Assembly (NCBI GenBank): GCA_009602735.1
Contig: WELA01003606.1
Location: forward strand, 717,602-781,601
From: Mesotaenium endlicherianum
Lineage: Eukaryota
Direction of reading: 5' to 3'
Length of the DNA: 64,000 nt
Within the stretch, counting starts at the first letter, position 1, and every line of letters starts with the position of its first letter. The notes beneath the pieces were generated by a model. It did no database searches, was not told the origin of the DNA, and was given only the letters and a program-made list of their open reading frames with translations. Below, piece by piece: positions 17,465 to 28,542 of this stretch. The translations under genes were made by a program, and so were the position numbers.

Positions 17465-17558
17465 ATGGTGACGAAACCCTCTTATTCGTTGATTGTCGCG
17501 TGCGTCATTTTCATGGCTGTACACTCCATTTCTGGGGTGAAGATAGATGAAGCTGACT
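17465..17558 (+). CDS. Probable first exon encoding a signal peptide
   Basis: [31 protein letters not shown] followed by a GTAAGT donor (phase 1); the link to the LRR exons needs one more exon. Confidence 0.6.
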
Positions 17559-20500
17559 GTAAGTACCTGCCTTGTCAGCAAAACGTAATATGCTGCATGA
17601 GGAATGCCTTGTCCCTCGTTTGGGAGCCTTGTAACGTACTGTGTACAAGTTGCGCGAGCTGTGAAACTGCTTTCTATAACTCTATGTACTGTATGCATTT
17701 GTGCGGATGATTGTTTGAAGCTTGCATCATTCGTAGTACCCTGCTTCCAAAATAACGACTGTTGCGCTCCACAGTATTGCACTCAAGCTTGTGCTCTTCA
17801 ATCCACGGCATATTGGTGCCTATGCTAGCAGGATAGTGTTTTACTTTTATTATTGTTTACAATGGTAGACAAGTGTGGCCCAAATGATGCTCTTCTGTCA
17901 ACCTGGACCTCGCACATGGTGCACATACTGAGGTCAACATTAGTCTTGGGTCGGTCTGATGGTCATGCACTCACTTTTATCATCAAGCCACCATTGCAGA
18001 CATTGCCCTCATCAGACTGCGACAGGGATTCCAAGACCAATCTTTCCTTTCTTCGTGGGATTGTTCAGAGTGTGACGAGTTTCTCGGTGTTTTTTGTGAT
18101 GACACTGGACGTGTGTCAATGCTGTGAGTGCTTTTCTTTTCCCCAACAATCATTCTTTTTCCTCTTATGTCGTTTCAGTGGAAGCATAGGGGGTGGGAGG
18201 GGGGGCGGGGGGGGNNNNNNNNNNNNNNNNNNNNNNNNNNNNNNNNNNNNNNNNNNNNNNNNNNNNNNNNNNNNNNNNNNNNNNNNNNNNNNNNNNNNNN
18301 NNNNNNNNNNNNNNNNNGGGCGGGGGGGGGGGGTCATGCCCGGCCTGTCTGCTTGCTCCATCTATAGCGGTTGATATATCATGTTCGTTTCTGCTGGGCG
18401 TTCATACTTGCACTCTCTATCCAAAGCAGGACTCCTGTCACAGATGTTTCCCTTCTTCTGTCTCTCCCCCACCTCCTCTCCCCCACCTCCAGTAGAAGGG
18501 GGCATGAGCCACGCGGTTGCGCCAGCACTCGTGGCTCTTACTCAGTATGGCCATGGTGGCTGCAAAGTGCCATGCACTTCGCTGGGCTGGGGTGGCATAG
18601 CGCCATAGGTATCTTGCAAGCATGCAGGTGCATTGATATTGATCACCTTGCTAGGGCAACCTCAGCTTCAGGGGGGCAAGCATCTGGCACTCCCTTGTTT
18701 CCGGAAGCTGCTAATAGAGACTCATGTTATTCACATGACCTTCCTCCTCTGCTGTGGGAGAGGCTCTCCTGGCAGGTCCCTGTCCTACTTGACCCTGGGG
18801 GGGACGCTGGACCCAGCAATCTGCAGCCTCACATCGCTCACCCACGTGTAAGCTTGCTGGCTCTGCAAGACGTCCGATGGCATTCACTCTTTGTCTTGCT
18901 CATGGTTAGTTCCCCAACCAACAGGGCAGAACAGCTGTACAGAATGTCAAAATTGCTGACAGCCACGACAGCCACACGAGGATCTGCTTGCGCGGAAGCC
19001 CCCCCCTCCTGTATACAATTTTCTTGCTGCAATCTGCTGGCAAGTTGCGACGATGTGCGGCATAGCGCGGAGGGGGGGGTTCCAAGATGCTCTAGTTGAG
19101 ACATATCCATGGATATAACCTTGCCTCTGGGTGCTGACGACGAAGTCATCTGTACCACGGCACAACTTCCCAGCTTATAATTACCGACAAGAATGCAGCG
19201 CTTTTGGCCTAGGGTGGGGAGTGAAGTGTTATGGTTTTCAATATTGCGGGCTTGTGATTGCCGTTGCGATGCGCAGAGCATTGTCCGGAAATAACTTGTA
19301 TGGCCCGCTGCCCCCGGACCTGTGCCGCCTGCAGCATCTATCTATTCTGTGAGTGCGACTCTCTCAAACCCCAACACCTTCTGCTAACATGTAACTTCCG
19401 AAGCTTGAGGTCTTGAGATAGTGGTGCTTGGCAAAACTGCATAAGCCTGTCACGACCCAAGGGCCTGGGCCCTGTCTGTGACGCCATCAGATCTCTGAAC
19501 CCCCGAAGCTAAAAGCTTGAACCCCCTACACTCTCCCTCCCTACGTTGGTGAACTTGCGCCTCTTGTGGAGCTCATGCCTGTGAGCATGAACACCTTGGG
19601 TCCAGTCTCTGAGAGTCAGGATTTCTCGGAGGTCAACCCTGAAATGCTTGAACCCCATGCCACTTGGAGATGGTGGCGTTGGGCCTGTCAAAGGAGCCGG
19701 TCATCCAGTGGGCAAGCCTTGGCATAACAGGTGGCACATTTGCGTGTCCCACTCTCCCTTGTCTTTGCTGGCCTTATGGGCCCTCCTGCTCTGACTCCGT
19801 CTCACCGGTGTAGCTTAGTGTAGCCTCAATCTCCACTTCTTGCTCAAGGTGAGTGAGTCGTATGATTGCACGACCCAGGAGTCATTCTCTAGTCATTTAC
19901 TCATTGTACCGTATCGTTTCGTGCACGCCATAGTTGGGTGCCAACCGGCGGAGGGCGCTGCCCAATAGGCGGCCTCAGGCAGCCCCAGCTGAGGGGAAGC
20001 AACCTCTAGGCTTCTGCGCGATGCCTGCACAGCGCCTGACCTGACCACTTGCTGGAAGCGCAATCTTCGAGCGTGCTCTGGAAATGGCCCCTCGATTCCC
20101 TTATCTGTGGCTTGCACCGCAGTTCCACGCAGCACCCTTGGCTGAAACTCAGGCGCGAGCTGGGTCTCCCTTACAGGAGGGCCTTCGTGTCTTCGGAGCG
20201 TGATAACCTCCGGATACTTTGCGTCCAAGCATGCTGCAAGTACGAACGTCCTGTTTGAGTGCTTGTCGCATACATGTGGCCGGCTGCGGCGCATCATCAG
20301 ACCCAGGCAGTCCCTGTCCAGCCTTCAGGGGCTGGGGCCCCTGACGGGGTCTGACTCCTAGTGAAAATTAGACTTGGAAAGGAAATGCACAAATTGATAC
20401 CCAAGCCTGGGTTTTACTACTCCTTCCAGGTTGCACGGTTAGCCCCCACTGGCGCGTGTGACATTCTTCGTATATCTCACAACTCTGAGGCCAGTCTCCC

Positions 20501-26500: not shown

Positions 26501-28542
26501 CCCAGGCCCATACTGTGTGCGGCGTGCGCGGACTACTGCGTACAACTGTCGTGCGCACCGGTCGACGCACTCCCTCGCTCCACACGCTTTGCAACTAACT
26601 GCGGGTTGGCCGTGCCTGTGTGCGTGTGCGCAGCGCCGCAAGGCACAGGCACGCAGACGTATGTGGTGCAGGCCTCGGAGTCGTGCTACCTCATCCACAC
26701 GGCGTTCCGCCTGACGCTGCTGCAGTTCCTGGCGCAAAACAAGGTGCACTTATGAACTTCTCGCAACCTAGCCGCGCCCATTCTTATGTGCGACCCATGG
26801 CACCAGCAATGGAACCCCCGCTTGCATGCATGTACTTACCCTTTTCTTTTTCATCAAGACGGTGCGTTGATGGCAAAAATGTGAGGTATACTTACCTCAC
26901 TGTTCATCAACGGGACACCTTGTGGTTGATCAAATCCTACGTTCCGAACGGCCCTCGATGTGGGCTGGCCTTGCGGTTGCAATTTGAAGGGTGCTACGTT
27001 TGCTCATATGGGTGGGTGGGTGGGCGGGCCATTGCAAGTGCGCAGGGCCTTAAGTGCAATGCGCTGCGAGCGGGTACTATTGTGAACGTGACACCTGTTA
27101 AGACCAACCTGGGCTGCACGCTGCTTTACTCCCTCAACCAGGCAAGCGTGCATCCACCGCTCGCTTCTTTGAGCTTGATAAGAGCTATTGCCCCTCTTCA
27201 GAGACCTATGCCAAGACTTCCTTCTGTCGTCATATCTTTTTAACTCGTTGCTCTTCAGGACAAGGATACACTTTACTTACCGCACGTCAGCAGAGCTTTG
27301 ACCCTTGATTGTGTGTAAGTTTGATGAAGTAATATAGTAAGTGAAGGCGAAGCGTTTTGGTAAGACCCATCGTCTTGCCTCAAGGACCAAGATGAGCATT
27401 TGCAATGATGGCAATGTACCCTTCTCTCATCTGCAATTCTGGCCCTAGTCACCTCCAAAAATGTGGTCGTCACTCGTGAAAAAGCAACAAGCTGCTGTTC
27501 TTGTGGCGAGGGAGTGCCAGGGGGACACATGCGCGTCGGTGAAGGCGCTCTTCAGCCTGAAGGTGGACCTTTTGAGCATCAACCCCGGCCTGGACTGCTC
27601 GCTCCTCGTGCCCGGGCAGCAGGTGGCTGCCTTACCTCCCCCGTAAAGCCACACCTGCATGGCCCTCCTTGCATGATGTCGAGCGCTTGTTCTGGTAAAT
27701 ATACTGGAGTACTTCTCCAGCGCAGATTTCTCACAAGTCCGTGCAGGTACTTCAACGAGAGTCCAGATGAAGTTGGTATACTGCCAAAAACAGTTGGAGG
27801 TCAAGTAAAATATACTTTCTCCATCTCTTTTGTTCTCCATCTTTTTGCGCGTCGAGTGTGAGGGAAGGACATGGGGAGGGGGATGGGTGACAACTTTGTT
27901 TTGTCCGTGACTCTAAATTTTGCCTTCCTTTGTTCCATGATGGCGGTTTGCACACGACTCAGGTATGCGTCAGATCGTCTGCGAAGAACCTGGCGGACCT
28001 GCCATTGTGCACGCAGCTGAAGCCCGTGGAAGCTTGGGACACGTGCCCAAAGCTGTGGGCCAAGTACCACCTCACTCCTGCGCGCTTCTTCGAGCTCAAC
28101 CCCGGCATCTACTGCGGGAACCTCGTTCCCAAGCGAGGTCCCTCTCTGCCCGGTCAGCAGGTATGCAGGCACCCTCTGTTTTCCGTCACCACTAACAGGA
28201 GCATCTTCTGCATGGGGGCTCAATGGGGAGCAGAGCTTGTGTTATATACAAAGTCGCGAGACTTGGAAATAAAGTGATGCATCATTTGCTCGTGTGGTGC
28301 CCTGCTGGTTTACGTTCGCCTCACGATAACAATTTAAAATTTTCTCGCAGGTTTGTGTGGCGGCGGCCCCCAACGGCCGTCCTCGGTGCAAGAAGGCGTA
28401 CAAGCTGCAGCGTGGGGACTCGTGCGCCTCCATCATTTATCACAAGTTCAAGAGGAGCGTGGCTTTGTTCAGGAAACTGAATCGTGGGCTCGATTGCCGA
28501 TCGGAATCGTTGTTTGTTCAGCAGATTATATGTGTTCAATGA
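17465..28542 (+). CDS. Multi-exon gene for a secreted mosaic protein: signal peptide - LRR - EGF-like - Pro-rich - papain (C1A) protease - 2xEGF - 4xLysM (>830 aa)
   Basis: Exons 17465-17558, [unlocated exon], 18776-18847, 19277-19348, 20577-20642, 20940-21193, 21738-22085, 22309-22559, 23372-23515, 24207-24423, 24833-24973, 25888-26028, 26634-26743, 27046-27141, 27521-27622, 27963-28160, 28351-28542. From 18776 on, all splice phases are compatible and the frame stays open to TGA at 28540-28542. Confidence 0.82.
18215..18317. other. Assembly gap flanked by G-runs
   Basis: Run of N. Confidence 1.
18776..20970 (+). CDS. Plant-type extracellular LRR exons
   Basis: Two 72-nt phase-2 exons ([48 protein letters not shown]), one 66-nt exon ([15 protein letters not shown]) and [11 protein letters not shown]; matches the LxLxxNxLxGxIP consensus. 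Confidence 0.88.
19448..20356. mobile_element. Possible solo LTR in the intron between LRR exons
   Basis: Starts TGTCACGACCC and ends GGGGTCTGAC(T), imperfect inverted termini of LTR type; no TSD. Confidence 0.35.
21745..21855 (+). repeat. Coding 24-bp tandem repeat encoding (SPPPPKKM)n
   Basis: CCCCCACCGCCAAAGAAGATGAGC, about 4.5 copies. Confidence 0.95.
22030..24423 (+). CDS. Papain-family (C1A) cysteine protease catalytic domain over four exons
   Basis: VDWR...[68 protein letters not shown]. Gln, Cys, His and Asn catalytic residues are all present. Confidence 0.95.
22117..22163. repeat. Intronic 12-bp tandem repeat
   Basis: TTCTCCTGTGGA, about 4 copies. Confidence 0.9.
24833..26028 (+). 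CDS. Two EGF-like modules, one per 141-nt phase-1 exon
   Basis: [16 protein letters not shown]...CKCPPQF...SC and [15 protein letters not shown]...YACICPAGF...TC, six Cys each. Confidence 0.85.
26634..28542 (+). CDS. Four Cys-flanked LysM domains over five exons
   Basis: YVVQASESC...QNKGLKCNAL; YSLNQGDTC...[24 protein letters not shown]...LNPGIYC...[15 protein letters not shown]...LNRGLDC...QQIIC. Confidence 0.88.

Follow-up and report, generated by a model that had tools for sequence, protein, structure and literature searches.

A zygnematophyte gene predicted to encode a secreted, LysM-bearing papain-type protease with a minimal propeptide

A 64,000-nucleotide stretch of the zygnematophyte alga Mesotaenium endlicherianum (GenBank assembly GCA_009602735.1, contig WELA01003606.1, positions 717,602–781,601 of the forward strand; hereafter the window, whose first letter is position 1) carries a 17-exon gene at 17465–28542 (+), in which a papain-type (C1A) cysteine protease is joined to an upstream leucine-rich repeat (LRR) head and a downstream tail of two EGF-like modules and four LysM domains. 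With a probability of roughly 0.5, we propose that its product is a latent secreted protease that would be tethered through its LysMs to chitin or peptidoglycan and would cut microbial surface proteins. Fusion of C1A with LysM is already on record in Chlamydomonas; what is new is an expanded zygnematophyte family in which heads are shuffled, some members are pseudo-proteases and a minimal propeptide is predicted. The family lacks the I29 prodomain yet keeps a conserved arm of ~40 residues, which AlphaFold places in the position occupied by the last third of cathepsin propeptides.

Results

Architecture of the gene and its product

The gene model was assembled from splice sites within the region 16500–30500 and scanned with Pfam exon by exon (17 exons). 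From the ATG at 17465 to the TGA at 28542 it forms a single frame of 873 residues with 0 internal stops, whereas none of 20,000 random chains of same-length segments was stop-free. GC content at third codon positions (GC3) is 0.79 in the coding frame versus 0.45–0.60 for GC in the introns, of which 15 are GT-AG and one, intron 14, is GC-AG (donor 27142). A preliminary description of this DNA had joined 15 exons from 18776 into one frame and placed a signal-peptide exon upstream. Both claims hold: the 15 exons splice in phase to the stop codon over 801 codons, exon 1 lies at 17465–17558, and exon 2 (18000–18123) is now added.

Exon 1 encodes a predicted signal peptide (aa 1–31; hydrophobicity peak KD19 2.12) that resembles the N-terminus of the paralog P0003, and exon 2 the LRR N-terminal cap (aa 32–72; tblastn with P0003, E 4e-7). 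LRRs 1–3 occupy exon 3 (18776–18847; 72 nt, phase 2), exon 4 (19277–19348; 72 nt; weak LRR_1 match, E 0.036) and exon 5 (20577–20642). A last partial repeat shares exon 6 (20940–21193, aa 143–227) with a Cys-rich cap and an EGF-like module (EGF-type matches, E 1e-4 to 2e-3). The plant-type LRRs of the preliminary description are therefore present and can be refined to about four, since the 1228-nt intron 4 is skipped whole in RNA, as is a 103-N gap in intron 2, and a search of the introns found no missed LRR exon. Exon 7 opens with a basic linker (21738–21913, aa 228–286; predicted disordered), continues through the conserved arm (21914–22018, aa 287–321) and ends with the start of the mature C1A domain (22019–22085), including the oxyanion Gln340 (22073–22075). 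The linker, earlier given as Ser-Pro4, consists of Ser-Pro4-Lys-Lys-Met repeats with three Ser-Pro4 units, all internal.

Catalytic Cys346 (22314–22316) lies in exon 8 (22309–22559; Peptidase_C1, E 1.2e-16), the middle of the C1A domain in exon 9 (23372–23515; 94% identity to P0003, no Pfam match alone), and His491 (24252–24254) with Asn511 (24312–24314) in exon 10 (24207–24423; Peptidase_C1, E 1.1e-16). EGF-like modules 2 and 3 correspond to exon 11 (24833–24973; weak hEGF match at 0.065, recovered by a family hidden Markov model (HMM)) and exon 12 (25888–26028; E 1.2e-7). LysM1 begins in exon 13 (26634–26743), as supported by the family HMM, Pfam on the public model and conservation, and ends in exon 14 (27046–27141), where LysM2 starts ahead of the GC donor. 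LysM2 continues in exon 15 (27521–27622; LysM E 0.0098), LysM3 fills exon 16 (27963–28160; LysM E 2.6e-4; PDB entry 5bum, E 0.075), and LysM4 shares exon 17 (28351–28542; LysM E 2.4e-4) with the stop codon. All four LysMs were recovered with local family HMMs, and together with Pfam these bear out the described layout of one EGF-like module before the protease and two EGFs plus four LysMs after it.

Downstream of the signal peptide no stretch exceeds KD19 1.6, motif scans found no transmembrane segment or kinase in the protein, which ends at the last LysM strand, and its EGF2-LysM4 tail gave no granulin match. The earlier view of a single soluble, secreted-type mosaic is thereby supported, and a membrane receptor or receptor-like protein was rejected for want of a transmembrane segment or kinase.

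The public model of this locus, P0001 (Mesen1 ME000073S09330; exon 10 100% identical), begins in intron 1, omits exons 1, 2 and 4 and shortens exon 14. It carries neither the signal peptide nor most of the LRRs, and Pfam detects in it Peptidase_C1 (1.6e-49), LysM (2.3e-18) and EGF (1.7e-7) and no LRR. At intron 14, where the GC-AG junction is RNA-supported, P0001 uses a GT donor further upstream, at the cost of 18 residues that include the beginning of LysM2.

An intact catalytic domain preceded by a conserved arm

The catalytic set Q340/C346/H491/N511 is complete, as had been claimed; the absence of I29 and the presence of the arm had gone unremarked. Peptidase_C1 scores 169 bits on P0001 against a Pfam cut-off of 20.7, the papain fold is recovered by Foldseek at E 1e-21, and similarity of the catalytic domain reaches E 1.7e-41 to 2fo5, with a TM value of 0.9 to mature enzymes. 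Across the family, Gln is kept in 70/74 and His in 92/94 aligned rows.

Neither exon 7 nor P0001 matched I29 (PF08246). Instead, the 35–40 residues ahead of the mature start are conserved, with a Gly, then a Phe-Arg-Tyr/His-x-Ser motif, then a Trp (alignment A2: Gly 64/66, Phe 56/73, Arg 59/73, Ser 69/72, Trp 61/73); the window copy has Glu310 where 52/73 rows have Gly. Rows of canonical I29 enzymes are mostly gapped over this segment. AlphaFold2, run on P0001 with a 107-row alignment (model residue numbers are those of P0001), gave a mean predicted local distance difference test score (pLDDT) of 83 and a predicted template modelling score of 0.75, with pLDDT 84–94 for the arm and below 50 for the linker.

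In cathepsin-type zymogens, the last third of the propeptide passes through the active-site cleft. When the model is aligned by Foldseek, zymogens give ~45 columns more than mature enzymes do (271 columns at a root-mean-square deviation (rmsd) of 2.8 for procathepsin K). The top VIA row is likewise procathepsin K, aligning model residues 183–453 with 62P–215 (Z 32.9, rmsd 2.2, 248 aligned); procaricain aligns from 72P to 216 with model residues 184–454 (247 aligned), and alignments to mature enzymes start only at ~229 and span ~214 residues. Taken with the conservation, these models suggest that the arm is probably a minimal propeptide without an I29 domain. An initial assignment of the FRxxSxG motif to the Gly motif with which I29 blocks the cleft was abandoned in favour of the preceding, invariant Gly287, a candidate counterpart that agrees better with the structural register.

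LysM domains related to those of chitinases

Searches with the LysM region of a paralog and a LysM profile returned as best PDB matches the chitinase-A LysMs 4pxv (E 2.5e-10) and 5bum (E 1.7e-9), followed by LytE (E 1.2e-4), the Volvox chitinase LysM 5k2l and Ecp6. The tail is thus most similar to LysMs of fern and horsetail chitinase-A and of Volvox chitinase, not to those of receptor kinases. Intra-domain cysteines number four in each of LysM2–4 and two in LysM1. The GD[TS]C site is intact as GDTC in LysM2 and nearly so as GDSC in LysM4, and that of LysM2 is the best kept across the family (G 66/82, D 75/82, T 67/82). According to the accessible parts of the respective papers, Pteris and fungal LysMs contain intra-domain cysteines, unlike CERK1/NFP (PMC4392113), the Pteris LysM binds chitin and is required for antifungal activity (PMC11011847), and Gly-Asp-Thr is among the Volvox LysM residues that shift on binding of chito-oligomers (PMC10197109). 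From these motifs, we infer that glycan binding would proceed mainly via LysM2 and LysM4.

A zygnematophyte family with a constant core and variable heads

Paralogs, which the preliminary description had proposed to seek in streptophyte algae, occur across zygnematophyte algae. At least 14 Mesen1-named models belong to the family, some of them fragments. Searching with the core yielded 132 matches; among the best 120 of these, 112 lack I29 (PF08246), the remaining 8 being granulin-type enzymes, and 67 carry an L-lectin domain (manual count). A full-library search added further relatives (best 150 listed, many unnamed, 30 looked up by name). Among the matches listed, named members come from Mesotaenium, Spirogloea, Netrium and Closterium, all Zygnematophyceae. 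One member labelled Leptophrys vorax groups with Closterium proteins and is likely a prey transcript. ESM Atlas returned only generic C1A and LRR clusters below 0.9, which gave no lead.

In a collected set of 308 proteins, which includes redundant and partial models, local HMMs placed an EGF or LysM downstream of C1A in 207. Three or four LysMs are present in 137 of these 207, and an LRR motif together with at least three LysMs in 44; a kinase motif, KDEL and ERFNIN (by regular expression) were each found in 0, and a transmembrane-like tail in 1. LRR, C1A and LysM occur together in Spirogloea P0200 and, within one open reading frame, in the Trinity-named P0029, P0037 and P0086 from other sets. 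Throughout, the C1A-EGF2-LysM core is constant and the head upstream of the protease variable: LRR, L-lectin (P0146), hevein (P0082, P0170) or CBM14 (P0227). In a quick tree of 82 of 86 chosen C1A domains (four were dropped for short coverage), 46 EGF/LysM-bearing rows and two truncated paralogs lie on one side of a branch, apart from the I29 enzymes, with an approximate likelihood ratio (SH-aLRT) support of 88, below the tool's mark of 95; the subgroup holding the window gene has 99.

Several members show further features. Mesen1 names put P0087, P0089 and P0020, and P0021 and P0022, close together on two scaffolds (109, 65), which suggests tandem arrays or split models. In a deeper subfamily (P0169, P0174, P0187, P0203, P0024), the conserved arm is immediately preceded by basic motifs like Arg-Arg-x-Leu, and motifs of a similar kind occur inside a C1A insertion in Closterium members; we take these to be possible subtilase processing sites. 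The N-terminus of P0082 (hevein-C1A-EGF2-LysM4) resembles by eye a degenerate I29, with no Pfam match at 1e-4, and may represent an intermediate in prodomain loss. A Rhizoctonia-labelled model, P0279, combines Peptidase_C1 and LysM with an EF-hand.

Of all parts, the LRR head varies most. Window gene and P0003 share 33/56 residues over the LRRs versus 200/225 over C1A, the ~4 repeats of the window gene compare with many more in P0003 and P0006, and relatives replace or supplement the LRRs with L-lectin, hevein or CBM14. This inconstancy and exchangeability argue against a fixed sensing role, and we read the head as an exchangeable targeting or anchoring module rather than a signalling sensor. 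The preliminary description's view of a sensor combining two classic plant immune recognition modules is therefore not supported as stated, given the variable LRR head and the chitinase-like, not receptor-kinase-like, LysMs.

Transcription and splicing

RNA joints back 12 of the 16 introns (1–6 and 11–16), which shows that the gene is transcribed and spliced and supports the earlier reading of one gene. Contigs of run X1, whose kind is not on record and which is taken as RNA from its GT-AG joints, contain the joints of introns 1–6, 11, 13 and 14 (including 17558>18000, 26743>27046 and 27141>27521), so that exons 2–6 are joined on both sides. Raw reads of X4, X7 and X10 contain the intron 16 joint, those of X8 at 99% likeness add introns 12 and 15, and for intron 10 a 9-nt overhang matches the end of exon 10. 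A fusion of two separate genes was rejected: joints tie the head to the start of the protease and the EGFs to the LysMs, and full-length Trinity-named relatives exist. A pseudogene reading was likewise rejected.

A contig at 17325–17558, with no differing letter, covers a transcribed 5′ leader (17325–17464), the contig end not defining the start site. The leader holds five upstream ATGs; those at 17410 and 17419 open a frame that crosses the start codon out of frame and could dampen translation. A second contig (28398–29122, again without a differing letter) extends transcription 3′ of the stop codon over 28543–29122. Most raw reads are 95–99% alike and derive from paralogs, and this copy looks like a minor member in the RNA runs examined.

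Relation to known systems

Cathepsin L-like C1A enzymes with I29 (barley EP-B2, actinidin, RD21/triticain-alpha, procathepsin K) share the catalytic domain and Q/C/H/N, and the arm is predicted to follow the path of the last third of their propeptide. Unlike them, the window protein lacks the ERFNIN/GNFD I29, granulin and KDEL, and has an LRR-EGF-Pro head and an EGF2-LysM4 tail. LysM chitinases of fern, horsetail and Volvox (4pxv, 5bum, 5k2l) use LysMs of this type, with cysteines and a GD[TS]C site, to tether a hydrolase to chitin; here the catalytic partner is a protease and the four LysMs are C-terminal.

LRR-extensins (LRX) and SERK-type short LRR ectodomains resemble the head in their signal peptide, LRR N-cap, 72-nt LRR exons, Cys-rich cap and Pro-rich segment. 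LRX proteins are defined by an LRR domain and, C-terminal to it, a long extensin domain. The window protein has just three Ser-Pro4 units in an internal linker, without a long extensin domain, transmembrane segment or kinase, and its head is followed by an EGF and a protease. Among green algae, the pheromone-induced Volvox C1A VcPap-11 reportedly carries three chitin-binding repeats. Bacterial LysM endopeptidases such as LytE and NlpC/P60 belong to a peptidase family different from C1A. They likewise aim a papain-fold cysteine peptidase at an N-acetylglucosamine (GlcNAc) polymer by a LysM array (PMC4356369, accessible text; LytE, E 1.2e-4), and cut peptidoglycan stems where C1A enzymes cut proteins.

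The closest architecture on record is the Chlamydomonas 'Peptidase C1A/LysM(3x)', a green-algal protein in which several LysMs likewise come after C1A. As far as the accessible part of that survey goes (Van Holle and Van Damme 2019; PMC6362431), C1A+LysM fusions are counted only in the column taken as Chlamydomonas among 21 genomes that include no zygnematophyte, C1A+lectin fusions are not retained in vascular plants, and the five C1A-LysM architectures of Supplementary Table 3 lack any LRR or L-lectin head, as well as a pair of EGFs separating C1A from LysM. Chlamydomonas and Volvox proteins were absent from the named matches of our family searches, in which many full-library matches are unnamed. 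A survey of pattern-recognition receptors (10.1101/2023.07.04.547604) contains, in its accessible part, nothing on this family. The literature search, which left subscription journals and preprint supplements outside its reach, found no description of the LRR/lectin-EGF-C1A-EGF2-LysM family, though supplements of genome papers may list the architecture, nor of a shortened-propeptide C1A family in zygnematophyte algae. The earlier suggestion of an uncharacterised architecture thus stands insofar as no paper on it was found, and is qualified by the C1A+LysM fusions listed for Chlamydomonas.

Other features of the window

Downstream, 31754–33295 (+) holds the last exons of a membrane-protein gene, whose otherwise continuous hydrophobic frame is interrupted by an in-frame TGA at 32692, a nonsense change or an assembly error. 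We presume a likeness to Na+/H+ antiporters; three pieces gave no supporting Pfam match. A Ty3/gypsy retrotransposon of the chromodomain type, whose gag (429 aa) and pol (1230 aa) frames are long, lies at 38434–43307 (−), and fragmented Ty3-like frames recur at 48.8–57.6 kb and 63 kb. The region 11500–14000 is A-rich, strongly skewed and repetitive, with long low-complexity frames, one of which was tested and gave no Pfam match.

Discussion

These features are consistent with the following mechanism. The signal peptide would direct the protein to secretion, and the shortened propeptide arm, predicted to lie on the protease domain, would hold the enzyme latent. Activation might follow a cut in the basic, Pro-rich linker, which is predicted to be exposed; such a cut would set the LRR-EGF head free. 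Once the arm is removed, as is likely, the LysMs could anchor the protease on microbial chitin or peptidoglycan within wall and mucilage, and the enzyme would there attack surface proteins of microbes in a putative defence role. The other heads of the family (hevein, CBM14, L-lectin) are glycan-binding folds as well and count in favour of this proposal.

Several results weigh against it. In hhalign, the pre-mature segment alone gave no profile match to I29 tails (probability 0.1–0.2%; the family core matched the deeper subfamily at 82.6%, E 1e-5), so the propeptide role of the arm rests on predicted structure. That prediction may lean on known zymogens, residues 183–189 of the P0001 model are low-confidence, and the Z values of the top VIA rows are tied within 1. 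No joint among those listed spans introns 7–9, which lie within the catalytic domain and separate Gln, Cys and His over exons 7, 8 and 10. No read or contig covers the whole gene, the 3′ joints might stem from near-identical paralogs, and raw RNA coverage of this copy is weak, with 5′ exons below 1x in 1.0–1.4 Gb. The GDT site is altered in LysM1 and LysM3. In the catalytic Cys column (115 rows: 72 Cys, 25 Ser, 1 Leu, 1 gap, 16 unaligned), Ser replaces Cys in 25/99 aligned rows, and proteolysis therefore appears dispensable in part of the family. Finally, the nearest physiological precedent, a Volvox C1A induced by sex pheromone (PMC2474614, accessible text), fits matrix remodelling as well as defence.

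That precedent leads to a tentative alternative, which we consider unlikely while giving it real weight: a latent, tethered protease acting on glycoproteins of the alga's own wall or mucilage when cells divide, mucilage is renewed or conjugation takes place, its LysMs binding endogenous GlcNAc-containing glycans. The extensin-like linker would suit such a role, transcripts of the paralog group appear in all three raw-read runs examined, and some LysMs bind N-linked glycans (PMC6449025, in its accessible part). The closest solved LysMs come from chitinases, however, the hevein and CBM14 heads of relatives are chitin-type domains, and high copy number with head shuffling suits a changing set of targets.

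The Ser-bearing members, which retain His and the fold, could instead mean that the main task of the family is to sequester fragments of chitin or peptidoglycan, or protease inhibitors of microbes, with C1A as scaffold or bait; the three or four LysMs in most members would serve this. Such a lectin or decoy function as the primary one is improbable, as the window copy and 72 of the 99 rows keep Cys, and Gln and His are nearly always retained. Quite improbable, too, is a sensor in which a ligand on the LRR head displaces the arm, switches on proteolysis and releases a signal: the LRR-cap-EGF head does stand directly upstream of the arm in the 44 LRR-bearing proteins with at least three LysMs and, between close paralogs, changes more quickly than the core, but a ~58-residue linker, predicted disordered, separates head from arm, many members lack or swap the head, and the window copy has few repeats and no transmembrane segment or kinase. 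That the window copy is drifting as a minor duplicate within a functional family is very doubtful, since the low RNA coverage dominated by paralog alleles (at 21984, the Gly codon on 648.9/672.4 of contig depth), the rare Glu310, the two upstream ATGs running out of frame over the start codon and the short LRR array are set against an intact 17-exon frame, correct splicing, a full catalytic set and coding-type GC3.

On the preferred reading of a tethered, microbe-directed protease, it is conceivable, if rather speculative, that the family represents a zygnematophyte 'receptor-protease' system of extracellular defence that was lost in land plants, with shuffled heads, a LysM tail, an I29-free propeptide of ~40 residues and Cys-to-Ser members as decoys or regulators. 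Little is known about the ways in which the algal sister lineage of land plants senses and attacks fungi and bacteria, and the family described here, which is large and expressed and combines secreted-type proteases with domains of the chitin-binding type, bears on this question. Automatic annotation hides the family, as the public model without signal peptide and most LRRs illustrates. A C1A family that lacks I29 and has a short, putatively inhibitory arm also bears on whether folding and latency require a globular prodomain, and Mesotaenium, as a culturable alga, allows direct tests of the family.

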